Origin: an uncultured Nitrososphaerota archaeon
GTDB taxonomy: Archaea; Thermoproteota; Nitrososphaeria; Nitrososphaerales; Gagatemarchaeaceae
Assembly: GCA_963838925.1 (NCBI GenBank)
Contig: CAWISW010000002.1
Location: forward strand, 512,001-576,000
DNA: 64,000 nucleotides
Direction: 5' to 3'
Shown: in pieces, positions 50,114-64,000 of the stretch
Position numbering within the stretch: the stretch's first letter is position 1
Layout of the letters: each line of letters begins with the position of its first letter
Made by a program: the position numbers and the translations under genes
Notes under the pieces: generated by a model
What the model saw: the letters and a program-made list of their open reading frames with translations, nothing else
Told to the model about the DNA's origin: nothing
Databases searched by the model: none

Positions 50114-53100
50114 CTAATTCCCGACGTGCTGGAACGTCATGAACGCCGAGTTGACGTAGTCGGTCACGATTATCGTGTAGTACCCCGCTGTAGCCGAAGG
50201 CACCGTGAAGGTCGTGCCCGCGGGGATGTTCCCGGCGGATGTCATCGTGATCGTCTTCAGGGTGGTGACCACGCCCGCGGAGTTCATCCACCCGATGGTG
50301 GCCTTGGCGTTCGGCGTAAAGCCACAGGGGCTCGTACAAGTCACGCTGACGCTCGACCCCGTGATTCCGGCCTGCGGCGACGTGGCAGCGTTCGCGTTCG
50401 TCACATATCCCGTGGGGTAGGGGATGGTCGCCCCGAACAGCGTGCCGTCGCTGTATTGCCCCGAGAGCTCGAACGTCGCTTGGAACCCCGCGATTTCGTC
50501 GAGCAGGTCCGTGGCGGTGGCCAGCGGCGTCATCGACCCGAAGTACATCGTCACTGGGGTGTCGTAGGGAAGGACCGTGAAATCCTGCGAGGAATTGTAT
50601 GCGACGAGGCCAGTGCCGTCGACGTTCACCCCCTGGATTATGAAGAAGACCGTGTTCTCGAAGAACTCGTCCTCGTCGGTGCCCACGGTGAGCACGCTAG
50701 TCGGGAACACCGTGATAGACCGGTGCTGCGGGTCCAGGTTCGTGAACGTCTCGCTCCACTCGAGCTTCACGTTCTCCGGCACCGCGAGGGCGGGGTAACC
50801 TCCCACCTGCTGGCCGTTCTGCGGGTTGACTATGGCGCTCAGAGAGATGGCTGACTCCACCCACGTGCTCGAAGCGCTCAGGGTGAATGGGGCAGTTTGG
50901 GAACCGCTCGCGCTGGTCAAGTACTCGCTGCACCCCTGGGCAGCGTGGGTCGCGTCGCAGCCTCCTGTTCCAGTCTTCACCGACACGTACGTACCTCCCA
51001 CGGTGCCCACGGTGTAGTCCGTCGTGGCCGAAGCCGTCTCGACGTTCCCGATGACTATCGGGCCGCTCCCCGGAGGCGTGAGGGCGGGGCTGACCGCAAC
51101 TGCCGTGGAACCGGCCGGCGAGCTCCCGGTTGAGCCGACGAACCCAGAGGTCGTAAACCCGTTGAGGTCGTAGACCGAGGCTACGCCGCCGGTCACCGTC
51201 GATCCGAAGGTCGCCGTTATGGTATCTGTGCCCGTGCCTCCCGCGGTCGCATACCACATGTAGGAGTAGTAGGTGGTGGTCACGGGGGCGAAGGCCATCG
51301 CGGCCTCGACCCAGGGGGAGGACGGGCTGATGGACATGGGCACTGTTGTTGCCGAACCCACGCCGGTCTGGTATTCCCCGCATCCTGCGACCGAACTGCA
51401 GTTGGCCCCTGTCGGTAGGGAAAAGCCGCTTCCGGCCGTGTATGTGGTAGAGGTCGACTCCGCGGTCCCGATCACCACGTACCCCGCGCTATTGATCGGG
51501 ATCGATGTGACCGAGGTGGCGGACTGGCTCGCCGCATTGCCTCCGGTCTCGATGAGGATGCCGCTCGCCGTCGTCACCCCGCTGATCTCGTATATCGAGA
51601 CCGTTGCCGCGACCGTCTGCCCGAAGGACCCTGACGTTATCGTGTCTGCGTTTGAGCCGGATCCTCCCGCGGTCGCGTACCAGATGGCCGTGTAGTACGT
51701 GTTGGTCTGCAGAGGAGTGAAGGACATCGCCACCTCCACCCAAGGCGTCGAGGCGCTGAGCGTGAACGGCGCGGTGGTCGAGGAACTTAGCCCGGTCTCG
51801 AACTCGTTGCATCCTTGAGACGCTAGGGTCGGGGAGCAGCCTCCCGAGGTAGTCTGGACGGAAGCGTAACCTGACCCGGGGGTATAGTCCGTCGCGGCAG
51901 AGCCGGTCTCCACATTGCCCACCACGAAAGAGTTCGAGTTGGGCAAGAAAGAGCTCACGCTAGCCGCTGTCGAGCCTCCAGACGAGCTCCCGCAGGTCGG
52001 CGCGCAGCTGACTATCCCCGAGGTGGTGGAGTACCCCGCGATCTCGTAGACCGAAGCGGTGCCCGCCACTGCCGCAGCGAAGGTCGCGGTTATCGTGTCG
52101 GTGGTCGAGCCTCCTGCGGTCGCGTACCAGATGGCCGACTCGTATGTGGTGGACCCGGCGGTGACGTATTGCGACACTCCGAGGGTGAAGGAGTCGCTGA
52201 AGGTGTCGGTGACCGCGGGCAACCCGCCGGTGCCCTGCGACGTGCTCCCGAAGCTCGTCGTCGGCATCACGTTGCTAGGGGGGTAGGCCCGAGCGCGCTC
52301 GAAGTTGTAGTTCACAGACACCGTGAAGCCGCCGTTGGTGGAACCGTACGCGCCCAGGTAGACGTTGGTCGCCCCGCTTATCGGGTTGTTGTTCACCGTG
52401 CCGGCGTAACCACCCGTAGTCGAGTAGAGCTGCGGGGCCAGGTAGGCGGTCCACGACGACGACCCCGTGCCTGGATAGGTCATGCTTGCATACTCCCACG
52501 CTGTGGTCGCCGTCCCCGCGCCGTTCTGACCGAAAGTATACGCACTATTGACGTCGGAGGCCTGTTGGAAGAAGTCGTTCCCTTGCCCGTCGCCTGTTTC
52601 AATGCCATTGGTGACGCTCCCAGGCGTGGCGTTGTTCACCAGTCCGTCGATTCCCGTGCTCGTTCCGGTGTTCGCGTTGGCGAAGCTCGCCTCTGTGATT
52701 ATGCCGCCGTTGGGTATGGCCGCATTGAAGGCAAAGAAGACGCTCTGCGCGTTGTACCCGCTTACGTGTATCGCGTTGATGGTCGCCCCACCGGGGCCCG
52801 TCACCCCGGTCGACTGCGACACCGCGAAGCCGCTGCCCGCGGTGAAGCTGGAGGGCGCCGTGTTGCCGTTGAAGTAGGCGTTGAAGACGTTGGCCCCGTT
52901 GTCGTACTGCGCGTAGGTGGAGGACAGGTTTGGCGCCTCGCCCCCATAGACGCCGTCGAAGTTCACCGATGTGAGGTCGAAGACCATGTAGATCCTGAGC
53001 GTCCCCCCGTTCGCGGCTATCGAAGACGTCAGCTTCACCCATGCGGTGGCGGACGTGGAGGTAGACCCCGCGGTGCTGCACGCGCTGGAGCACGACTCCA

Positions 53101-56100
53101 GCCATGAATAGAGCGTGCCTGCACAGGCTGTGTCGCTGCAGAACCTGACGTTCCCGAGGTTGGTTGCCTCGTAGCTGGTATATGTCGCAGGGTCCCAAGT
53201 TATCATCTGCTGGAAGGTGTTCGGCGTGGCGGTGGTCTGGCTGTTCGTGATGGTGATCGGGACGTAAGCGAGGGTAGCGCCGCCTCCGCTCGTCGTGCCC
53301 AGGGAGACGGCGGGCATCGAGCCGTTGGGTGGATATGCCCGTTCGCGCGCCCAGTTGTAGTACATGGCAGCCTGGGCGCCCGAGTTGGTGGTGTAGCCAA
53401 AGCCGAGGTAGAGGTGCGCCGCGCCAGATATGGGGTTGACGCCTTCGCTTCCGCTGTATCCCCCAGTGGTGGAGTACAGCTGCGGCGCGACGTACCCCGA
53501 GTACAAAGTCGCCGAGGTGCCCGGGTACGTGGTGGAGCCGTAGAGCCACGCCTCCGCGGCCGTACCCAACTGGTTCAAGCAGTAGCTTTCCGTGCCGCCG
53601 CTCATGTAGTCCTGGTTGAAGTAGGCGGTCTGACAGCCGGTGTTGGTGCCTATGTAGTTAGTCACGCTCGCCGCCGCGGCGTTGTTCATGAGGCCCGACG
53701 TGCCGGAATCCACCGTGTAGTCCACGTTCTCAAAGTTGCTCTCGACCACCCCGCCCGTGGTGGTCAGAGCCACGTTGTACACGAGCGGCGAGTCGTTGGT
53801 GCCGTAGCCTGTGAGGTGAAGCGCCGAGACGGTGCCCGAGCCGTAGGCGACGCCGGTGGACTTTGCCAGGGTGAATCCGGAAGCGACCGAGAAGCTGGAG
53901 GTCGCCGTGTTGCCGTCGAAGTACGCGTTGAACACGTTTGCCCCGTTGTCGTACTGCGCGTAGGTGGAGGACAGGTTTGGCGCCTCCCCCCAGTAGTTGT
54001 CGTCAAAGTTCACCGAAGTCGCCTCGAAGACCATGTATATCGTGAGCGAGCTTCCGCTGGAGATGGACGAAGTCAGCTTCACCCAAGCGGTGGCGGACGT
54101 GGAGGTAGACCCCGCGGTGCTGCACGCGCTGGAGCACGACTCCAGCCATGAATAGAGCGTGCCTGCACAGGCTGTGTCGCTGCAGAACCTGACGTTCCCG
54201 AGGTTGGTTGCCTCCCAGCTCGAATACGTCAACGGGTCCCACGTCACCATCTGCTGGAAGGGGTTCGGAGTCCCCGAGGCGGGAGCTGCTTCGACTGCGT
54301 CCCCTATCTCGGCCCACTGGTTCGAGCCGCCGGTGCTCGTTGTGAACGGGATCGCCAAGCCGCTCTGCGTGGCAGTCACGGTCTCGTATTCTTCGTCGGA
54401 GTTCATGCACGTGTTAGCGCCGAGAGCGCTCTCAGCCAGGAATTCGCTGAAGCCAGTCCCGTAGGCCTCGGTGTGGCACACGGCCGCCGACGTGTGCTCG
54501 TTCGCAAGCATGCCGACAATCAGGTCGTTCGCGTTGGACGTCGTCACCGAAACCGAGGGAGAGGCGGTCGTTCCGGTCGCCGTCGCGGCGAGGCTGCCGT
54601 TAGGGTCGAACGGAGTAACCAAATTGGCGCCGCTGACTCCGAAGGCCGTGAAGACGTTGTCTCCTGTTGCTGACCAAGTGACCGTGATCGAGTCCGCGGA
54701 CAGCGGGGAGCTGGCTACGGTGTACCACTCCTCTTCCTCGACGCTGGGCGAGCCCGTCTTCGTCTGCCGATGGGTCCACGCGTGGCCGCCAGCGTCCTTT
54801 ATTGACGAGACGGTGGTCGAGGATGTGGAGGTGCCGGTGAAGAGCACTATCACGTCGTTCGCGTTCGTCGTCGTGAGGCTGGCCGAAACCGAGTTCGTCT
54901 CGGTGCCTGCTCCCGTCGAACCGTCGATGGCCGGAGTGCCGGAGCTGCAAACGGAACCCGCGGAACCCTGGATGGCATCGCCCCACGCCTCGTTGGCGTC
55001 GGACGCAGAGTTGCTGTAAGTGAGGCTCAAGCCGCTCTGCGTGGCCGAGACCACCTGGTACTCAGAGCCCGTGTAAGAATTCGCTACCCCGCTGGTCAGC
55101 GCCGACCAGCCGCTGCCGATCGTCGGGGCGCTCGTGGTGTTGGTGTTCTCCAGACCGAAGATGAAATCGAGGGCGTTTGAGGTGGAGACGCTCGCGTAGT
55201 TCCCGTTCCCGGGGAACGAGGGAAGGCCAGAGTGCGAGTCGAAGGGGGTGCTCGTGTTGGCCCCGCTGACGCCGAAGACCTGGATGAAGCCCTGGGCGGT
55301 CGGCGCAGAGCTCCAGGTCACCTTGATGGAGTCACTAGACAGCGTGGAGGCGGATATCGCGTAGTAGATCTGGCCGAAGAAGGAGTTTCCGCCCGAGTTG
55401 TTTATCTCCTGATACGAGCCCACTCCAGTCCACGTCAAGCCTGCGCCGTCCGACATCGTAGCAGTCCGATACGATCCCGTCGCCGTGTTCTGCCCGTAGA
55501 CGATGGCAATTATCACGTCACTCGAGTGGGTCGTCGTGAGGGACGCCGATAATGAAGAGGTGGTCCCTATGTTGTAGTTGCTGCCGTCGAGCGCCGGCGC
55601 GGACGCCACGAGCTGGCAGTTCGTGATGGTGACCGGGACGTAGTTGTACTGCGGAGTCGAGGGCCATCCTAGCCCGAAGACCAGGGTGTTGCCCGCCGTG
55701 ACCGGCGAGGTGGTGGCTATCGAGCATGTCGCCGAGCTGCAGTTTGCCTTGTACGCCTGCTGGACCACCGAGGGCGCGGTGGGGTTCACCGTGACGTAGT
55801 TTGACTCGCCGGGATGGAACGTGTCGCCGAGGGTGTCGGTCGGAACTGAGGCGGGAGTCGCCGCGTTAGCCCATCCAAGGCCGTAGACCAGCGTGTCCCC
55901 CGAGGCGACGTTTGAGGTGTACGGCAGCCCGCAGGTCTGCGCGTTGCAGCTGCCGGAGCGGCTCTGGACCATCGAAGGGGTGGCGGTGTGCACGACGGAG
56001 CTTGACGCCGCCTGCGCGAGCGTGAATGTGGATCCGAGTGTGTCCGTGGGGACGCCGGACGGCGGGCTCTGCCCGTACCATCCAAGCGCGTAGATGAGCG

Positions 56101-56773
56101 TGTCAGCCACTGTCACCGAAGAGCCGGTGGTCACAGCGCAGCCGCTCCCGCTGCAGCCGGTTGTGGTGTAGCCCGTCTGGCGGACCGAGGTGGGCTCGGC
56201 GGTGAGAGCGTGCCACCTGAACTGGTTCAGGTTGACTACCACGGACTCGCTCGAAAGCGCGTTGTTCGCGTAGTTGGTCGAAGCCTCAGGGTACGTCTGG
56301 ACGTAGGTGTTGCCGCGTGCTGTAAGCACTTTCACCGTGACGGTCCCCGTTGTGTAGACGTATTCCGTGTCGATTGTAGGCGATCCCTTGCCGGCGTTCA
56401 CGGTCACCCAAAGCGGCGGCACCGTGTTGACGCACCCCTGCCCTGATGGGAACCCGAGCCCCAGACACTTCAGGAGAGTGCCGGTCGAAGATAGGACGAG
56501 GACAGCGGTCATGTTGACCGTCAGCGCGGAGGTGTCGTTTGCGTAGAACCCTATGTCACCGTCGGCGTCGAGGAGGGTGGTGATGGTGAGGCTCTCGGTG
56601 AGGCCTCCCTGGACCTTGTTCGTCGCCGCGAGAAGGCTTGAGACGTAGCTCGCGTTCTGCGAGTTGACGAAGATGAAGTAGGACGTCCCGACGGTGAAGA
56701 GGATCGCGAACATGATCACCGTCGCCACGATGCCGGCTATCGCCCTCCTGGACCTGCGTCTTGAGAACTTCAT
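50114..56773 (-). CDS. Giant (2219 aa) type IV pilin-like adhesin with two DUF2341-like repeats and nested beta-modules
   Basis: Class III signal-like RRRSRRA|IAGIVATVIMFAIL, VLTARGN pilin strand, repeats YVPITITN..FQQM..NVRF..WVKL..QYDNGANVF. Confidence 0.85.
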   Translation of the reverse strand: MKFSRRRSRRAIAGIVATVIMFAILFTVGTSYFIFVNSQNASYVSSLLAATNKVQGGLTESLTITTLLDADGDIGFYANDTSALTVNMTAVLVLSSTGTLLKCLGLGFPSGQGCVNTVPPLWVTVNAGKGSPTIDTEYVYTTGTVTVKVLTARGNTYVQTYPEASTNYANNALSSESVVVNLNQFRWHALTAEPTSVRQTGYTTTGCSGSGCAVTTGSSVTVADTLIYALGWYGQSPPSGVPTDTLGSTFTLAQAASSSVVHTATPSMVQSRSGSCNAQTCGLPYTSNVASGDTLVYGLGWANAATPASVPTDTLGDTFHPGESNYVTVNPTAPSVVQQAYKANCSSATCSIATTSPVTAGNTLVFGLGWPSTPQYNYVPVTITNCQLVASAPALDGSNYNIGTTSSLSASLTTTHSSDVIIAIVYGQNTATGSYRTATMSDGAGLTWTGVGSYQEINNSGGNSFFGQIYYAISASTLSSDSIKVTWSSAPTAQGFIQVFGVSGANTSTPFDSHSGLPSFPGNGNYASVSTSNALDFIFGLENTNTTSAPTIGSGWSALTSGVANSYTGSEYQVVSATQSGLSLTYSNSASDANEAWGDAIQGSAGSVCSSGTPAIDGSTGAGTETNSVSASLTTTNANDVIVLFTGTSTSSTTVSSIKDAGGHAWTHRQTKTGSPSVEEEEWYTVASSPLSADSITVTWSATGDNVFTAFGVSGANLVTPFDPNGSLAATATGTTASPSVSVTTSNANDLIVGMLANEHTSAAVCHTEAYGTGFSEFLAESALGANTCMNSDEEYETVTATQSGLAIPFTTSTGGSNQWAEIGDAVEAAPASGTPNPFQQMVTWDPLTYSSWEATNLGNVRFCSDTACAGTLYSWLESCSSACSTAGSTSTSATAWVKLTSSISSGSSLTIYMVFEATSVNFDDNYWGEAPNLSSTYAQYDNGANVFNAYFDGNTATSSFSVASGFTLAKSTGVAYGSGTVSALHLTGYGTNDSPLVYNVALTTTGGVVESNFENVDYTVDSGTSGLMNNAAAASVTNYIGTNTGCQTAYFNQDYMSGGTESYCLNQLGTAAEAWLYGSTTYPGTSATLYSGYVAPQLYSTTGGYSGSEGVNPISGAAHLYLGFGYTTNSGAQAAMYYNWARERAYPPNGSMPAVSLGTTSGGGATLAYVPITITNSQTTATPNTFQQMITWDPATYTSYEATNLGNVRFCSDTACAGTLYSWLESCSSACSTAGSTSTSATAWVKLTSSIAANGGTLRIYMVFDLTSVNFDGVYGGEAPNLSSTYAQYDNGANVFNAYFNGNTAPSSFTAGSGFAVSQSTGVTGPGGATINAIHVSGYNAQSVFFAFNAAIPNGGIITEASFANANTGTSTGIDGLVNNATPGSVTNGIETGDGQGNDFFQQASDVNSAYTFGQNGAGTATTAWEYASMTYPGTGSSSWTAYLAPQLYSTTGGYAGTVNNNPISGATNVYLGAYGSTNGGFTVSVNYNFERARAYPPSNVMPTTSFGSTSQGTGGLPAVTDTFSDSFTLGVSQYVTAGSTTYESAIWYATAGGSTTDTITATFAAAVAGTASVYEIAGYSTTSGIVSCAPTCGSSSGGSTAASVSSFLPNSNSFVVGNVETGSAATDYTPGSGYASVQTTSGGCSPTLASQGCNEFETGLSSSTTAPFTLSASTPWVEVAMSFTPLQTNTYYTAIWYATAGGSGSNADTITSGSFGQTVAATVSIYEISGVTTASGILIETGGNAASQSATSVTSIPINSAGYVVIGTAESTSTTYTAGSGFSLPTGANCSSVAGCGEYQTGVGSATTVPMSISPSSPWVEAAMAFAPVTTTYYSYMWYATAGGTGTDTITATFGSTVTGGVASVYDLNGFTTSGFVGSTGSSPAGSTAVAVSPALTPPGSGPIVIGNVETASATTDYTVGTVGGTYVSVKTGTGGCDATHAAQGCSEYLTSASGSQTAPFTLSASSTWVESAISLSAIVNPQNGQQVGGYPALAVPENVKLEWSETFTNLDPQHRSITVFPTSVLTVGTDEDEFFENTVFFIIQGVNVDGTGLVAYNSSQDFTVLPYDTPVTMYFGSMTPLATATDLLDEIAGFQATFELSGQYSDGTLFGATIPYPTGYVTNANAATSPQAGITGSSVSVTCTSPCGFTPNAKATIGWMNSAGVVTTLKTITMTSAGNIPAGTTFTVPSATAGYYTIIVTDYVNSAFMTFQHVGN
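53028..54214. repeat. Near-identical 143-bp direct repeat (53028-53170 / 54072-54214) within diverged 1044-bp tandem units
   Basis: One mismatch seen by eye; a second identical ~47-bp patch at ~52893 / ~53940. Confidence 0.85.
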
Positions 56774-56781
56774 GGCTCAGG

Positions 56782-57409
56782 TCAATCCTGTTGCGAGAGT
56801 GTGTTGGTGTTGCCGTAGACTCCCGTGACCACCACCGTGTAGGTCGTTCCGGAGCTGATTGTCTGGCCGAAAGATGGGCAGTTGCCTTGCGGTCGGCGGG
56901 ATCGTGAGCGTGTACACCTGCTCGTTCGTCGTCCTTACCGTGGTGCCCGTCAGCGACGGTGACTCGTACGTGGAGGCCGCGGTCATGCACTGCCCGGAGA
57001 GTGTGCTCTTTAGGTCGTAGACGTAGTCCGCCTTGCTCGCGCCGCTCCCGCTCGAGCTGTAGAGCAAGTTTACCAGCCCGGCAGAGTCATAGAGCCTGAC
57101 AGAGGCGATCTGAAATGTGAGGCTCCCGGTGTTGTAAACCCAAAACACCGCGGAGCAGGTGTTGCCCCCGCTGCAGGCACTCCCAGACGCCTGATTCGTG
57201 CTGTAATACATTGTGAAGACGGAAAAGTGCTCGCTGAGCATGTCGTTTGTGGCGACCCCGCCGGACTGCAACGCCCCTTCGCTGCTGGCCGCCTGGCTCC
57301 TGACGAAGCCCCACGCAGCCGCGCCCGCGATTAGCGTCATCGCTATGGCGAGCATCGCCCCTACCGCTTCTGAAGCGGCAACGCGTCTGCGGTCCCGATA
57401 AAACCTCAA
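56782..57409 (-). CDS. Archaeal type IV pilin, +1 frameshift near 56891
   Basis: RRRVA|ASEAVGAMLAIAMTL signal; alternative frame gives GNCPSFGQTISSGTTYTVVVTGVYGN..QQD* typical of pilin C-termini. Confidence 0.8.
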
Positions 57410-57639: not shown

Positions 57640-57978
57640 ATGACATACCTGCAAAAACCGGCGGGCATGGCGGATGGAGAGCAAAATACTACGAAGCGGG
57701 TTGTGAGCAGGCGGTCACAGCTCGAGATCAGGATGGACATCCTCAGGGCGATCATGGAGGGCGCGGAAGGTCCCACTCAGATAATGTACAAGGCCAACTT
57801 GTCCTGGATACTGCTTTGCGACCACCTCAGCGCGCTCGGCGACCAGGGGTTCGTCGGCGAAAAGACGGTCGGGAACCGCAAGAAATACTCCCTTACAGGC
57901 AAGGGGATAGAGATCGTTGGAGCTTATCTCAACCTAATCAGGGAGATTATCTTCGACACCGCCGCAGCGCCAGTGTGA
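57640..57978 (+). CDS. Winged-helix transcriptional regulator (HTH_45-like)
   Basis: RRSQLEIRMDIL..GPTQIMYKANLSW..YSLTGKG; divergent from the pilin operon. Confidence 0.85.
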   Translation: MTYLQKPAGMADGEQNTTKRVVSRRSQLEIRMDILRAIMEGAEGPTQIMYKANLSWILLCDHLSALGDQGFVGEKTVGNRKKYSLTGKGIEIVGAYLNLIREIIFDTAAAPV

Positions 57979-59043: not shown

Positions 59044-61740
59044 TTACTCGAACGAGGTATCAAACTCTTCGTCGGCTGTCTTCCCGCCGCCTCTCCTCCG
59101 CCTGACGAGGAAGATCGCTGCGACCGCCCCGCCCGCGCCTCCGATTGGAACAAGGACCAGCGGGAAAGTCGTTAGCTCTTGCGTAATGCTGGCCTTTGGT
59201 TTGACCGTCACGCTGGACTGCGGTGGGGCGCTCACCGAGACTGTGAAGTTGAGCGTCTTAGAGAAAAGCCCGCCAGGTGCTATCACCGCGCTTACCAAGA
59301 CATTCCCAGCCTTGGTCGGGTGGAATATGACCGTAGACGTGCCAGTCTTGTCCGTAGTGTCGTTCACAGATGGTAGTCCTGCCTGGACGGCCGCGGTCGT
59401 AGTGGACTTGGTCTTCGTGGTTGTAGTGGTTGTGGTCGAAGACGTTGTTGAGGTGGTCGAGGCGTTTGAGGAATGAACTGTAGCAACGACGAGTCCCCCG
59501 CTAGCTGCCTTCCAAGAGACCGGCGCGCCATTCAGAGGCGACCCGTCCAGGGCCAAGTCGATTGCGATTACTGAGGTCTGGTTCGTGAAGATCTTGGCAG
59601 GGCCGCCAGAGATGGTCTCCACGCTAGGGTACGACAAGAATGTGACGAGGATCGAGGTTGTCGAAAGGCCAGGCGTCGAAAGCGTCATCGTCGTCTTCCC
59701 GGGGACACTTGCCGACAGCGGAAAAGCCGCGTAGTCTTGGCCTACTCCAATGACGGCTGACAGGACCTTCGAGATTACCGTGCTGTTTGATGATGTTATC
59801 GTAATATTCATTGGAACTCTAGCCCGAGCGGGGTTGCCTCCCGAGTCTTGGAGCTGTACCGCCAAGAGAGGTTGTTGATGCGCTGAACGGGGGGTAAACA
59901 TCACGGTGTTACCATCCGGTGCGATTGCCGAGAGGGCAGAGGGTGCTGGAATGACCGTCGAGAGGTTCACGGATGATGTCGCGTAGCCTGTTGTGGACGA
60001 GAGCCCAAGGCTGGTAAGCTGGACGAGGGCTGTCACGTTGGCTGTTCCTTGGAGAATTCCCGCCGTCACGTTCACGACAGCGTAAGCCTGTCCGCTTGGA
60101 ATCACGGCGTTCGCGACGCTCACCACGCCGGCCTGTGAAGAGGAAAGGCTTACTGGGATATCAGAAGCCGCGAACGCCGGAGAGCCAAAGGCGTCTTCAA
60201 GCGCAAGTTCAAGAGCAGGGTGTGGAGATGCATCAGCAGGAAGAGGCGTGCTGATGGCGCTGAGTACGACTTGTGAAGGCACAGAGCCGTACGTTGCAAG
60301 TGACGTCTGGACAGGTAAGACGTTCTGGGCGGACGCGGTAAGTTCTGTCGTGCCCACCTGATAAGTGGAGGTGAAGGTCACAGCTGCCCAGTTTCGCCCC
60401 TCTTGGATTGGAAATGTGATTCGCGTGAAGTTCCCAACACCAGTAACAGATGACGTGAGCGTGACCTCGGTAGGTCCGGTATCATTCACGGCGGGAGCTA
60501 ACGCTCCTCCAGGAGGAGACGACAAAAGTGAAACTACCACGGAACTATATGAACGATGGTCTGCCAGAACAGGACTTGGCCCAGCAGAAATCTGGAGAGA
60601 GCAGTGCGATTGTCCGCCGGAGGTGCACAATGCAGGAGTTAAGACATTTGGCTGAGAGACCGTGATTCCGGCGAAACTCGACGCCAAGCCAGGGGCGCTT
60701 GCCGTGATCGTGACCGAGTCTGATGTGGAACCGGCGGGAAGCGAAGTTGCCGTTACCAGGAACGTCGCAATCGCAGAGATGTTGCCTGCGTGAATTACAG
60801 TAGTTTCGGATGCGTTTACAACTTCGAGGTTGGAGCTCCTGATTTGGACTTCGATGTCGCGGGTTGCCAGCGTGGGGTTGCCGTTAAGATCGGTCAGAGC
60901 CACAACGAGCCTGCCCACGCAAGCATCGGGATTCACAGCGGTCACGTTGGCGTCGCATAGGATCATGTTGCTAGGTTGGGCCTGCAACTTCAGGGCCAGT
61001 GGAGGGAACCCAAGGACCGAAATAGTCACCACACCTGAAGAGAAACCGGTTGCCGAGGCAGTGATGACGGCCGACCCCGGCACGAAGCCGCTCGTATAGT
61101 TTATCTCCTTCAGATAATCCCCCTCCCTCATCACTGCGGTAGCCGCTGTCACATTGACAACGTTGGTGTTGGACGAGTAAAGGGAAACTGGGACGTCAGA
61201 GATCGCCTTTGCTGGAAGCCCGGCGGCATCCTCAAGCTCGAGTATCAGGTTGCCCCTACTTGCCGCACTCGCCGGAACAGTATCCGGGACGGCGGACACC
61301 ACCAAGTGAGTCGGATATCCCACGGCAACCACCGTGGTTACTACGGTCTTCGCTGTAGCGAGCCCTGAAGTCGTCGCCGTTACGGTCGTCACGCCCGGAG
61401 TATGGGTCGTGGTGAAGTTCGCTATCGCGTACGTTTCACCCGCAGGTATCTGGACGCTCGGCGTTATCTTCCCGACGCTTTCCTGCGACGAAGTCAAGGA
61501 GACATTGATGTCGGCGAGCCCCACCGTCGGCTGACCGCTGGCGCTCACGATCGAAACCACCACCGCAGGGTAGGTGTTATTGTCAGAAGGTAGCTCCGAC
61601 GGTATTGTCGACAATTGAAGGGCGACAGGCACGTTCGATGCCGTTGCTGCCGCGTGAACCGCTTCGGAAGGAAGGGCACCAATCGCCGCGAGACCAATGA
61701 CAAGCAAGCATATGCCTAAGACCCTAGGGGTTCTTCGCAA
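59044..61740 (-). CDS. Cell-surface protein with tandem Ig-like (Big/invasin-like) repeats and C-terminal TM
   Basis: Signal peptide; ~6 repeats of L.D..G.P..A..DI.V.L.SS; TM followed by RRRR. Confidence 0.8.
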   Translation of the reverse strand: MRRTPRVLGICLLVIGLAAIGALPSEAVHAAATASNVPVALQLSTIPSELPSDNNTYPAVVVSIVSASGQPTVGLADINVSLTSSQESVGKITPSVQIPAGETYAIANFTTTHTPGVTTVTATTSGLATAKTVVTTVVAVGYPTHLVVSAVPDTVPASAASRGNLILELEDAAGLPAKAISDVPVSLYSSNTNVVNVTAATAVMREGDYLKEINYTSGFVPGSAVITASATGFSSGVVTISVLGFPPLALKLQAQPSNMILCDANVTAVNPDACVGRLVVALTDLNGNPTLATRDIEVQIRSSNLEVVNASETTVIHAGNISAIATFLVTATSLPAGSTSDSVTITASAPGLASSFAGITVSQPNVLTPALCTSGGQSHCSLQISAGPSPVLADHRSYSSVVVSLLSSPPGGALAPAVNDTGPTEVTLTSSVTGVGNFTRITFPIQEGRNWAAVTFTSTYQVGTTELTASAQNVLPVQTSLATYGSVPSQVVLSAISTPLPADASPHPALELALEDAFGSPAFAASDIPVSLSSSQAGVVSVANAVIPSGQAYAVVNVTAGILQGTANVTALVQLTSLGLSSTTGYATSSVNLSTVIPAPSALSAIAPDGNTVMFTPRSAHQQPLLAVQLQDSGGNPARARVPMNITITSSNSTVISKVLSAVIGVGQDYAAFPLSASVPGKTTMTLSTPGLSTTSILVTFLSYPSVETISGGPAKIFTNQTSVIAIDLALDGSPLNGAPVSWKAASGGLVVATVHSSNASTTSTTSSTTTTTTTKTKSTTTAAVQAGLPSVNDTTDKTGTSTVIFHPTKAGNVLVSAVIAPGGLFSKTLNFTVSVSAPPQSSVTVKPKASITQELTTFPLVLVPIGGAGGAVAAIFLVRRRRGGGKTADEEFDTSFE

Positions 61741-61837: not shown

Positions 61838-63562
61838 CTAGAGGGAGTGGCCCAGGATGACGCCGGACAAAGCCACCATCATAGCCCCGATGAGTACCAA
61901 CGCGAGAGCATGCTTGAAGCCGTCGGCCACCGTCCCGCCACCCATCTTCCCCGCCACGAACCCGATGACCCAGCCGTCGAAGATGGACGCAGTCAAAAGG
62001 CCCTGTACCGTGGCGGGCGTTATGGTAATCCCTGGAGTGGGGGCGGTGGACCCGGCGAACTTTATCGGTGTTGAGAGGAAGTAGACCATCATGAATGTGG
62101 TGAGTACCAGCATTATGCCTGCCATGTACACCACGAAGATGTAAGACCTCAACGCAGCGCGCTTGTCGGACTCTATCTCGTTGACTTTGCGGGTGAAGTC
62201 TGCCATCTGCGAAAAGCTGTTCACCGTGCCGCCGCCGACGTCTACGACCTCCACCATGAGCGTCCCGATTGCCATGGTGATCCAGCTGTCGACGGAATCA
62301 GCGAACGTCTTGATAACCTTGAGGATAGGTAGCCCCCACGAGATCTGAGAGCCCATCGTCTTAATCGATTTTGAGAGTCGCCCGTAGTTCTTTGAAGCGA
62401 GCTGTTCGATGCTCCCCTCGGGGGAGAGACCGATCTTGCGCCCCTCCGCCACGTCCCTGATGAAGTCGGGCAGCGCCTTCTCCAATCCGGCCCGGTTGCG
62501 AGACTGCCTGAACGCTGAAATCGAGGGGATGATCATTATCGCGATGAGCGCTACCGAGACGTGTAGGCTCAGCTCCAGAGGGAGCGGGAGCAGGAAGAGC
62601 ACCGCCCCGATAGGTGTGCAGGCCAAGAACACGTAGTACGGTCGCTTGTTGAAGATAGGTTGCTTGGGCTGGGTCCCATCGATGATGAAGATGAACAGGG
62701 CGGAAAGCGCCGGGACGACCAGATAAGAGAATGTGTAGAGGGTCGTGAGTCCTGAGTTGTTGTGGGCTATGACACCCTCCAGCTGGAAGAGACTGAATAG
62801 GGTTATGCCCATGACGGCTGTCACGGTGAGGTAAGCCTCGGCAAGAGTGCCCACGGAGTCAGTGATCCGCCTGACCTTTGAGGTGCTCAGGTCGAGGGTC
62901 TCCTTCAGCTTGTTGTTGACATAGTTCTTCACGTCGCCTCCCACCTTCAACACAGTCGTGTAGCCGTAAAGGAACTCTGCGAAGGGTTTGTTGGGCATGT
63001 ACTTTGCGGCGGTTTCGAAGGCCGTGATCGGGTCAGTCCCGAAGACGTCTATGTCTACCAATATCCTCTTCGCTTCTTTGGCAGACGCCGGGAAGACCTT
63101 CGACATGCCCGAGATCCTCCTCAGAGTGGAGATTGGCGACACCCCTCCGCCCGAGAGGACGCCCAGAAAGCCGATCAGCATGGGCAACTCGTTGTCGAGG
63201 GCCTGGGAGCGAGAGCTTTGGGAGGCTTTCGGCATGTTCCAGAAGACCACAAATACGATGGGTGGAGCTATTACGACCAGAAACAAGAACAAGATATGCA
63301 AGACCAGGCCCAGGATCACGCAGATTACGACGGGGATGATGGAAAGCACGGTGGCGAAGAGCGCCAGCGACACCAGCCCTTCCGGCGTGATGCGCATGTT
63401 GGACTTTAGTATCTGGTCCCGCATCTCCGGGGACGAGGCCGCGAACCTCTTGCCCTGGGCCCCGAAGAGCTTGTAGGCGGTGGACGCCATCCGGTCGAAC
63501 AGGCTCAGCTTCGAGCTTTCCTTGGCTTGGCGGGTCTTCTCTAGCGTGCCGACCTGGGTCAA
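61838..63562 (-). CDS. Type IV pilus membrane platform protein (TadC/FlaJ-like, two T2SSF domains)
   Basis: LDNELP..SGG, LEKALPDFIRDVAEG, GFVAGKM..GFKHA. Confidence 0.9.
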   Translation of the reverse strand: MTQVGTLEKTRQAKESSKLSLFDRMASTAYKLFGAQGKRFAASSPEMRDQILKSNMRITPEGLVSLALFATVLSIIPVVICVILGLVLHILFLFLVVIAPPIVFVVFWNMPKASQSSRSQALDNELPMLIGFLGVLSGGGVSPISTLRRISGMSKVFPASAKEAKRILVDIDVFGTDPITAFETAAKYMPNKPFAEFLYGYTTVLKVGGDVKNYVNNKLKETLDLSTSKVRRITDSVGTLAEAYLTVTAVMGITLFSLFQLEGVIAHNNSGLTTLYTFSYLVVPALSALFIFIIDGTQPKQPIFNKRPYYVFLACTPIGAVLFLLPLPLELSLHVSVALIAIMIIPSISAFRQSRNRAGLEKALPDFIRDVAEGRKIGLSPEGSIEQLASKNYGRLSKSIKTMGSQISWGLPILKVIKTFADSVDSWITMAIGTLMVEVVDVGGGTVNSFSQMADFTRKVNEIESDKRAALRSYIFVVYMAGIMLVLTTFMMVYFLSTPIKFAGSTAPTPGITITPATVQGLLTASIFDGWVIGFVAGKMGGGTVADGFKHALALVLIGAMMVALSGVILGHSL

Positions 63563-64000
63563 AGCTTGAACCTTTCCCCCGTCTCTGCTTGCATGACGAG
63601 CCCGGCCTTCCCCAGGTCATCGCGCGCCCGGTCGAATATCTCCTTCGAGTGGGACCTGTACTCTTCGAAGATTAGCGAGAGCTCCCTGAAGTTCCGGATG
63701 TCTCTCTGCTGAGCCCACTTCAGGACTATGCTCCTCCTCTCTATCTCGCTCATAAGCTCTGGAACGGTGGTCCCGGTGTCTCTGGCGAGCCTCACCAGCT
63801 TGACGCTGGTCTTCAGCGGCGACGCCAGCTGCTTGTCGCTCCCCGGATCCCACTTGAACATGCGCACGTAGTTCCCTACGCCGACCACCTCGTCGACGGA
63901 CAGGACGCGCCTCATCGTCTTGAAGCCCCCGCCGGGCGTTGGGATGGCGATCCTTCGCACCGTGAATACGAGGTCGAGGAAGGGGATGAACGACGGGGGC
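63559..64000 (-). CDS. Type IV pilus assembly ATPase, C-terminal part (5'-partial)
   Basis: PPSFIPFLDLVF..RRVLSVDEV..FKWDP..ERRSIVLKW; overlaps the TadC start. Confidence 0.8.
   Translation of the reverse strand, partial: PPSFIPFLDLVFTVRRIAIPTPGGGFKTMRRVLSVDEVVGVGNYVRMFKWDPGSDKQLASPLKTSVKLVRLARDTGTTVPELMSEIERRSIVLKWAQQRDIRNFRELSLIFEEYRSHSKEIFDRARDDLGKAGLVMQAETGERFKL

Follow-up and report, generated by a model that had tools for sequence, protein, structure and literature searches.

The genome of an uncultured Nitrososphaerota archaeon (family Gagatemarchaeaceae; assembly GCA_963838925.1) raises the question of what a protein may look like, and do, when its domains are repeatedly inserted into one another. 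The stretch considered here (contig CAWISW010000002.1, positions 512,001 to 576,000, 64,000 nucleotides; hereafter, the window, numbered from its first letter) contains an open reading frame (ORF) on the minus strand, 50114-56773, that encodes a protein of 2219 amino acids (aa), with an ATG start and 0 internal stops. A model that saw only the letters and the translations (the sequence-only reading) had described this product as a giant pilin-adhesin in which every module is lodged within a loop of its predecessor, the modules closing in reverse order. The analysis described below supports this nesting and suggests that the protein is a modular archaeal type IV pilin.

Repeat layout of the giant protein

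The product was cut into overlapping 120-aa pieces that were compared all against all. This self-comparison yielded four repeat families: N-terminal pieces of a domain A (AN; three copies, aa 196-385, best E 8e-14), modules B (two copies, aa 393-836, E 1e-12), DUF2341-like modules C (two copies, aa 807-1546, E 6e-65), and C-terminal pieces of A (AC; three copies, aa 1543-1981, E 2e-29). The places that the sequence-only reading had given for these families fit the residue ranges within a few residues, and every motif it quoted is found in the translation. The three AN pieces carry TLIYALGW, TLVYGLGW, and TLVFGLGW, with VPTDTLG present only in A1 and A2; YNYVPVTITN occupies aa 376-385, and LAYVPITITNSQTTATPNTFQQM is the opening of C2. 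The TDTF segment that is absent from the N-piece of A3 precedes the first A C-half, as had been noticed (LPAVTDTF, aa 1518-1525, ahead of the first WYATAGG). Written as a string of modules, with an opening bracket for AN, a closing bracket for AC, and N and Z for the N-terminal and C-terminal modules, the protein is N(((BBCC)))Z. Its layout, including the insertions that we propose below, is as follows.

56294..56773, minus strand (aa 1-160): pilin module with basic leader MKFSRRRSRRA, hydrophobic alpha-1 helix, and predicted beta-sandwich
56189..56293, minus strand (aa 161-195): pre-insertion segment, a linker helix and two short strands (..VVVNLNQFRWHA..), ending at the insertion point
55988..56188, minus strand (aa 196-262): AN1, N-piece of A1, with C-x4-C, TLIYALGW, and VPTDTLGSTF; A2 inserted behind it
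55778..55987, minus strand (aa 263-332): AN2, N-piece of A2; A3 inserted behind it
55649..55777, minus strand (aa 333-375): AN3 core, stopping at GLGWPSTPQ and lacking the TDT segment; C domains inserted at the earlier of two loops
55619..55648, minus strand (aa 376-385): first strand of C1, YNYVPVTITN, the counterpart of LAYVPITITN that opens the uninterrupted C2
54932..55597, minus strand (aa 393-614): B1, a complete, uninterrupted A-homologous domain inside C1
54266..54931, minus strand (aa 615-836): B2, the second B domain, in the same C1 loop; 44% identity to B1
53294..54265, minus strand (aa 837-1160): remainder of C1, TPNPFQQMVTWDP..., DUF2341-like
52238..53275, minus strand (aa 1167-1512): C2, the second, uninterrupted DUF2341-like domain; E 6e-65 to C1
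52136..52222, minus strand (aa 1518-1546): middle segment of A3, LPAVTDTFSDSFTLGVSQYV..., the piece absent from AN3; aligns with PTDTLGxTF of AN1 and AN2
51698..52135, minus strand (aa 1547-1692): AC1, closing A3
51278..51697, minus strand (aa 1693-1832): AC2, closing A2
50831..51277, minus strand (aa 1833-1981): AC3, closing A1
50399..50830, minus strand (aa 1982 to about 2125): remainder of domain D2, with NGQQVGGYPA.., TNLDPQHRSITV, YFGS, and TIPY; the boundary between D2 and D3 is approximate
50117..50398, minus strand (aa about 2126-2219): D3, C-terminal immunoglobulin (Ig)-like domain of the IPT/TIG type

At the DNA level the copies have diverged, the best direct repeats, between C1 and C2, being one of 209 nucleotides (nt) with 92% identity and one of 199 nt with 82%; the module junctions are spanned by short public contigs with 0 differences (these contigs come from one study and may derive from the source sample). 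An assembly artefact is not indicated. Four DNA sequencing runs, all from one study, contain parts of the gene, and no RNA sequencing run containing it is listed among the public runs.

In each of two runs, one contig joins window position 51598 to 52077 with 22 other letters in between, for an in-frame net loss of 456 nt or approximately one AC unit. The shorter side of this joint consists of just 22 letters, so that it is probably a repeat artefact or the sequence of a relative; if real, it would represent a variant with an unbalanced nest.

Recursive insertion of A domains

Searches for relatives of the giant protein gave 38 matches (including the query) among proteins of 1220-3884 aa and 47 among shorter proteins; some of the sources are labelled 'Nitrososphaerales archaeon' or 'Thaumarchaeota archaeon'. 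Hidden Markov models of the six module types were mapped on 226 stored family proteins, those running from the N module through the C-terminal module (N..Z) being considered complete. By this definition, and with models built family-wide, 58 of the 226 are complete, and 30 of these 58 contain A modules. The bracket strings are balanced in all 30, with depth 2 in two proteins, depth 3 in 16, and depth 4 in 12. The agreement extends beyond equal counts, as exemplified by the strings N(((C(C))))Z, N(((()())))Z, and N(())Z. In fragments, at least six and at least seven levels are open (P0046 and P0049, respectively).

The sequence-only reading had proposed searching for homologues in which the A halves are contiguous, and such proteins exist: eight '()' units were detected in relatives, namely P0013, P0032 (two), P0034, P0041, P0049, and P0050 (two). 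In profile-profile comparison with hhalign, the B profile matches the profile of these contiguous A units with a probability of 97.3 and E 1.9e-11 over 186 columns that span both A halves; B compared with AC alone gives a probability of 97.6, and AN by itself (70 residues) gives no significant match to B (probability 0.2). Given the contiguous A units and the alignment of B across both halves, A and B are a single family of domains of about 210 residues, with the chain interrupted in A.

Two insertion loops can be distinguished in the A domain. The first, directly behind GLGW, is where the C domains sit in A3; the second, behind the PTDTLGxTF...V.V segment, is where A1 takes up A2 and A2 takes up A3. 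The use of two loops accounts for the absence of the TDT segment from AN3 and for its return behind C2, ahead of AC1. Given the short linkers, both a nested pairing of the pieces (AN1-AC3, AN2-AC2, AN3-AC1) and a parallel one are conceivable, and three observations favor nesting. First, the position of the TDT segment ties AN3 to AC1. Second, in relatives with four levels, the added N-piece is the last one and the added C-piece is the first one (clearly so in P0009, P0013, P0026, and P0030, and ambiguously in others), and C-pieces 2-4 best match C-pieces 1-3 of a three-level protein. The third observation comes from structure modelling.

Two segments of the window protein, aa 196-375 and aa 1518-1981, were entered as separate chains in a co-fold with 16-row alignments, three runs, and three controls; the resulting values are model confidence rather than measurement. 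The interface score ipSAE was 0.79, compared with 0.00 for the best of the three controls. In the calibration stated for the tool, its mark was reached by 58 of the 80 complexes with solved structures and by 2 of the 110 pairs that were mismatched, counts that are only rough here given that the alignments were self-built and shallow. At least 97% of the contacts, about 980 in number, were common to the three runs, with a predicted local distance difference test (pLDDT) score of the partner of at least 89. The listed lowest-error pairs (25 of 25) were all AN1-AC3, AN2-AC2, or AN3-AC1. Specifically, residues 31-56 of chain 1 (AN1) contacted AC3 (chain-2 residues 319-351), residues 100-125 (AN2) contacted AC2 (chain-2 residues 177-212), and residues 169-171 (AN3) contacted chain-2 residues 31-34, within AC1. 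Independent folding of the A N-halves, the outcome that the sequence-only reading had named as speaking against it, is not what the models indicate: the N-pieces had a pLDDT of 34 when modelled with an unrelated second chain and of 90 with the C-pieces.

An arrangement without any nesting, in which AN and AC would be two unrelated small independent domains in tandem and the symmetry would be coincidental, finds some support in the failure of B to match AN alone and in the fact that the structural evidence is not experimental. This explanation, already disfavored, is barely credible when confronted with the balanced strings in all 30 complete proteins, with counts ranging from 2 to 4, the alignment of contiguous A and of B across both pieces, the move of the TDT segment from AN3 to the front of AC1, and the dependence of the N-pieces on the C-pieces for confident modelling. 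We conclude that the insertion of A2 inside A1 and of A3 inside A2, that is, recursive insertion of members of the same family, is supported, as is the order of closure, by sequence comparison with added support from the models. Together with the variable number of B domains in C described next, the bracket balance, the homology of contiguous A and B, and the co-fold make four independent lines in favor of nesting.

The B and C cargo domains

The C1 module was predicted to be interrupted by B at the point revealed by the uninterrupted C2. To examine this point, aa 381-1165 were aligned with 19 relatives (20 sequences). The T and N of the VTITN strand are invariant in all 20. In three homologues (P0019, P0020, and P0029), VTITNSQ is joined straight to SATPxxFQQ, without B; one B is present at the same point in three homologues and in P0012 (where gaps in the alignment row cover part of the B stretch), and two are present in eleven homologues and in the window protein. 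Because the number of B domains at this one position of C varies among relatives from none to two, the insertion of B1 and B2 in the first hairpin of C1 is supported by these alignments.

In an AlphaFold2 (AF2) model of aa 372-1165 (794 aa), the B domains have pLDDT values mostly of 80-92. The C1 module is modelled poorly, with pLDDT of 30-70, and its separated first strand is predicted as a strand at model residues 7-13 with pLDDT of 56-59.

The Pfam family DUF2341 (PF10102; gathering cut-off 23.4) matches C1 with 16.6 bits (E 0.011) and C2 with 10.0 bits (E 1.3). Among the 38 proteins from the search of long proteins, 13 have a precomputed PF10102 match; P0033 scores 83.8 bits. Since homologous C modules of relatives pass the cut-off, C of the window protein is, by transitivity, a divergent relative of DUF2341, as judged from sequence similarity. 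Neither A nor B has a Pfam match, the B profile has no match below E 0.66 among the sequences of the PDB, and hhalign shows B and C to be unrelated (probability 0.5). A Foldseek search of the 794-aa model against the PDB produced no match at E <= 0.001. VIA-align, run against 48,161 chains, gave as its best match a Z of 7.8 to CBM22-type modules, in the low-confidence stretch of C1; this C-terminal part of the C1 model resembles CBM22/CBM4 jelly rolls with Z of 6.3-7.8. The best match of B had Z 6.4 (5.7 on recheck). Such middling fold matches establish neither a new fold nor a lectin.

The sequence-only reading called the tip domains lectin-like. For C, this is a reasonable guess, considering the sub-threshold DUF2341 scores and the middling matches to carbohydrate-binding modules; for B, these searches detected no convincing fold match that would point to a lectin. 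On our reading, B and C would be ligand-binding domains, with a glycan as the probable ligand. Alternatively, the distal B and DUF2341-like domains could be catalytic, for example, polysaccharide-cleaving, such that the pilus would carry an enzyme: the modules resembled by C are found on glycoside hydrolases and lyases, and B has no known relative in either the PDB sequence search or the fold searches. We consider this quite improbable, because the fold matches are to binding modules rather than to catalytic domains, are middling (Z below 8) and fall in the low-confidence part of the model, and because no catalytic family was matched in Pfam or NCBIfam.

A complete pilin at the base

Which domain hosts the entire nest? 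The protein starts with the leader MKFSRRRSRRA followed by the hydrophobic helix IAGIVATVIMFAILFTVGTSYFIFV, with the cleavage site read by eye. Short homologues in which the pilin N- and C-regions are contiguous, which the sequence-only reading had suggested looking for, account for 25 of the 58 complete family proteins. One of these, P0076 (425 aa), aligns by BLAST with the window protein (P0001) in two blocks that are adjacent in P0076: aa 15-193 with window-protein aa 11-188 (48% identity), and aa 202-422 with aa 1986-2215 (27% identity, E 3e-12). A search with P0076 among 1.84 billion representative sequences retrieved 252 clusters at E <= 0.001, most of them of 320-480 aa and with a single-stretch match. 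Intermediates carry, at the same point of the base, one B, one C, or a two-level nest of A.

The AF2 model of P0076, built on an alignment of 71 short relatives, has a pLDDT of 91.6 and a predicted template modelling score of 0.73. A helix at residues 14-63 is followed by strands, then by a helix at 170-180, short strands at 183-185 and 191-194, and a loop at 195-212; the C-terminal region (the D2 part) has pLDDT above 90. The best structural match to the base is the subunit of the flagellar-like type IV pilus of Pyrobaculum calidifontis (PDB 8fk7): residues 20..165 of the model superpose on 8fk7_A in VIA-align with Z 11.1 and a root-mean-square deviation (rmsd) of 2.3 over 130 of 136 residues, at 18% identity, and Foldseek places 8fk7_A at rank 16 for the P0076 model, with a target-normalised TM score of 0.70. 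Unlike the window protein, this subunit consists of 136 residues and has no extra domains.

Given this superposition, the pilin fold is predicted to be finished within about the first 160 residues, uninterrupted and ahead of the insertion point. The description of the N-terminal region as a 'pilin N-half' therefore has to be revised. The C-terminal region comprises two further Ig-like domains, D2 and D3: residues 340-425 of the P0076 model match the IPT domains of NF-kB and NFAT with Z about 9 and rmsd 2.5 over 83-85 residues, and many of the VIA-align matches for the C-terminal domains start at model residue 182. The strands at model residues 183-194 (within window-protein aa 161-195) most likely open D2 as its first hairpin. 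The outermost host of the nest would thus be either the second domain, D2, in a split form, or the linker before D2.

The whole protein matches 0 families in Pfam and NCBIfam. The A/B domain and the base of roughly 340-450 aa, with its 252 representative clusters, are two uncharted families without a Pfam model.

Modules A, B, and C are also present on P0050 (module string (())(())B), P0060, P0035, and P0039, which have a different, canonical archaeal pilin N-terminus (M..RRGVS.IIG..). Two of these more distant proteins, P0050 and P0060, reach 22.5 and 22.2 bits, respectively, against the Pfam family Pilin_N (PF07790), the cut-off of which is 25.2. Judging from these occurrences, the modules look like a pool common to several pilin families.

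Pilus locus and proposed role

The window protein combines a pilin module with DUF2341-like, A, and B modules. This fits the modular type IV pilins of Raynaud et al. (2021), which have an N-terminal pilin module and one or more modules that are not peculiar to pilus biology, a definition built on the bacterial IPR012902 motif. The genes for the secretion ATPase and the platform protein lie upstream of the giant gene on the same strand. The neighbourhood within the window is as follows.

56777..57409, minus strand: small pilin paralogue, a 210-aa ORF upstream consisting of the pilin module only; its stop lies 3 nt before the ATG of the giant gene
57640-57978, plus strand: winged-helix gene (HTH_45), between the pilin genes and the remaining pilus locus
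59044..61740, minus strand: secreted repeat protein, 898 aa, without a Pfam match; translation read by eye
61838..63562, minus strand: platform protein of the T2SSF / TadC-FlaJ type (Pfam T2SSF, E 3.2e-21, two stretches)
63559..64000, minus strand: 3' part of the secretion ATPase gene, which continues beyond the window (Pfam T2SSE, E 6.7e-38, at positions 559-2181 of L004, a sequence of the same genome that extends past the window end)

With a probability of roughly 70%, we interpret the giant protein as an archaeal type IV pilin of the modular kind. Most likely it is a subunit of low abundance, or one at the tip, in the pilus that the neighbouring ATPase and platform genes make. Its first approximately 160 residues would form a complete pilin that anchors the base in the filament. 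At the start of the Ig-like D2, the chain would exit the base and run outward via AN1, AN2, and AN3 to a distal cluster that consists of the DUF2341-like C1, the first hairpin of which carries B1 and B2, and the second DUF2341-like domain, C2. It would then come back via AC1, AC2, and AC3, closing the A domains in reverse, and complete the two Ig-like domains of the base. The containment A1 > A2 > A3 > C1 > B1/B2 would amount to five domain levels inserted into the base, with successive domains linked by two polypeptide crossings and both chain ends remaining at the base. The three nested A domains would serve as a two-stranded connector, probably an extended stalk, holding a head made up of B1, B2, C1, and C2.

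Several points weigh against this interpretation. Pilin_N has no match in the whole protein or in its N-terminal 200 aa, and none of the 72 short relatives has one; the model that shows the pilin fold is of the 425-aa homologue rather than of the window protein itself. The only candidate for a class III prepilin peptidase in this genome, which is 87% complete, is a Peptidase_A24 match (G000:C1:182144-182437) in a 218-aa frame that scores under the cut-off (25.2 bits vs 26.5; E 2.8e-5). The DUF2341 match in the window protein is also under its cut-off, and the insertion of B into C1 is without structural support, given the low pLDDT of C1 and of the separated strand. A and B have no convincing solved relative, the best matches being at Z 5.7-6.4 for a multi-domain model, and the co-fold depends on shallow alignments of our own making. 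Finally, we infer the extended shape of the stalk, and the models were read without coordinates.

The missing Pilin_N match, the very large size of the subunit, and the presence in the locus of a large S-layer-like, membrane-anchored protein would also fit a nested protein that functions outside any filament, using its pilin-type N-terminus for export and anchoring in the membrane or envelope, as a surface receptor or adhesin. A precedent is found in the sugar-binding proteins of the Sulfolobus bindosome that, according to the available part of PMC13705601, use a pilin-type N-terminus (class III signal peptide). Such a role appears unlikely, albeit deserving of serious attention: the base matches a genuine pilus subunit across both helix and sandwich (Z 11.1), and the gene lies 3 nt behind a small pilin paralogue, together with the ATPase and platform genes, a linkage that is kept in relatives. 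Specifically, the five loci with strong matches, which belong to four related genomes, each have a same-strand T2SSF gene at a distance of 8-10 kb upstream.

Within a filament, the giant protein could in principle be the major subunit, so that the entire filament would be covered with nested stalks, and the short forms of the family, of 340-450 aa, are numerous and could themselves be major subunits. We regard a filament of this kind as very improbable, given that an appendage of about 1800 residues per subunit would be difficult to pack and that a paralogue with the pilin module only is encoded directly upstream. By analogy, the bulky modular pilins of bacteria are modelled as tip subunits in the portions of PMC8179133 and PMC6561018 that were available. 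A low-abundance or tip position of the giant pilin accordingly remains our preferred interpretation, with the 210-aa ORF as a candidate major or partner pilin. The profile of the short-form family matches this ORF with E 4e-11 over profile positions 7-144 (hmmsearch), and no Pfam match was obtained for it.

The last approximately 35 residues of the 210-aa ORF (..QLPIFRPDNQLRNDLHGGGHGSLRQHQH..) are unlike the remainder, so that its true 3' end or frame may differ.

Comparison with known systems

Long surface stalks normally consist of tandem Ig-like repeats on a single chain. The A family appears instead to extend by insertion of its own kind into a loop, such that each joint would be double-stranded and the chain would return to its start. 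The A domain could, accordingly, be a self-nesting extension module that hosts copies of itself in one hairpin and carries cargo there or in an earlier loop, so that stalks are made by recursion rather than by tandem repeats; we advance this generalization tentatively, at slightly less than even odds. If it is correct, the length of the stalk would be tunable, relatives ranging from 2 to at least 7 units, and with both chain ends at the base of the pilus, C-terminal base domains would still be functional there. This would be a second natural way of holding a binding head at a distance, evolving fast within a single archaeal genus. Close relatives form a graded series, with no insert, a single B or C, then two, three, four, and more levels of A, which would make them unusually good material for studying the folding and evolution of nested domains and for designing insertion scaffolds.

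Literature searches, which covered sources other than subscription journals and supplements, turned up no account of an archaeal pilin with recursive nesting, in line with the suggestion of the sequence-only reading that the architecture had not been described; in PMC13705601, 'modular', 'DUF2341', 'giant', and 'large pilin' each occur 0 times. The closest architectural parallel is the Si3 insertion of the beta' subunit of cyanobacterial RNA polymerase, in which, according to the available parts of PMC13114784 and PMC11515920, SBHM/HABAS domains are recursively inserted to up to six nested levels. In both cases, members of a single domain family have been placed inside each other again and again, and the result is a long out-and-back appendage. 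However, Si3 is an insertion in a cytoplasmic enzyme, has a different fold, and contains domains that are partly strand-swapped, whereas here the host is a secreted pilin, the depth varies from 2 to at least 7 among close relatives, and unrelated cargo resides at the centre. The likeness is one of architecture only, and we make no claim of homology to SBHM/HABAS.

Among pilins, PilB and PilC of Streptococcus sanguinis, modular type IV pilins with a vWA and a lectin module, respectively, similarly have a small pilin module that bears bulky adhesion modules and a proposed position at the pilus tip, as presented in the available portion of PMC8179133. Unlike the modules described here, those of PilB and PilC are bacterial, appended behind the pilin module with a short loop as the link, and un-nested. 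The largest modular pilin quoted in that portion has 860 residues, and the word 'archaea' occurs 0 times in it. Large insertions in pilin-type proteins are also exemplified by ComZ of Thermus thermophilus and the GspK pseudopilins, which are read as tip subunits with a large domain inserted via two short linkers (PMC6561018, as far as available). In those proteins, the insertion involves one level and goes straight into the pilin beta-sheet, whereas here it is recursive and located past an apparently uninterrupted pilin fold. The modular-pilin idea, so far bacterial, would thus gain an archaeal case, the deepest found.

For archaea, Makarova et al. (2016) predicted that large DUF2341 proteins encoded in type IV pilus loci are tip adhesins (PMC4858521, available in part). 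The window protein resembles these in size, in its DUF2341-related domains, and in being encoded in an archaeal pilus locus. It differs in the nesting, the A/B family, and the particular base family, which are not described in the available part of that article; its supplement may list related arCOGs.

Distribution and additional genes

The AC array was detected in 11 of the 22 other genomes of the genus. Among the genomes searched, it was detected in 0 of the 2 that represent different genera of the same family and in 0 of the 16 that belong to different families of the same order. At three loci in the genus (G018:C1:490574-497518, G018:C4:3231-9001, and G020:C58:38800-46580), several adjacent A-type frames of 343 to 2170 aa lie beside one platform gene; their arrangement suggests tandem paralogues or broken copies.

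The 898-aa protein encoded between the winged-helix gene and the platform gene has a signal-like segment at its N-terminus, beta-rich segments that are repeated, a stretch of poly-Thr, and, at its C-terminus, a membrane anchor with RRRR behind it. These features fit an S-layer-like component of the locus, comparable to the extra S-layer-like or adhesin component of thaumarchaeal pilus loci mentioned in the available part of PMC4858521. The winged-helix (HTH_45) gene may encode a local regulator. Past the end of the window, positions 2404-7377 of L004 contain genes for an FkbM-type methyltransferase, two fragments of GT2 glycosyltransferases, and a PMT_2-like membrane glycosyltransferase, along with an ORF that matches Pfam Pilin_N with E 1.6e-8; these may represent glycosylation machinery and another pilin.

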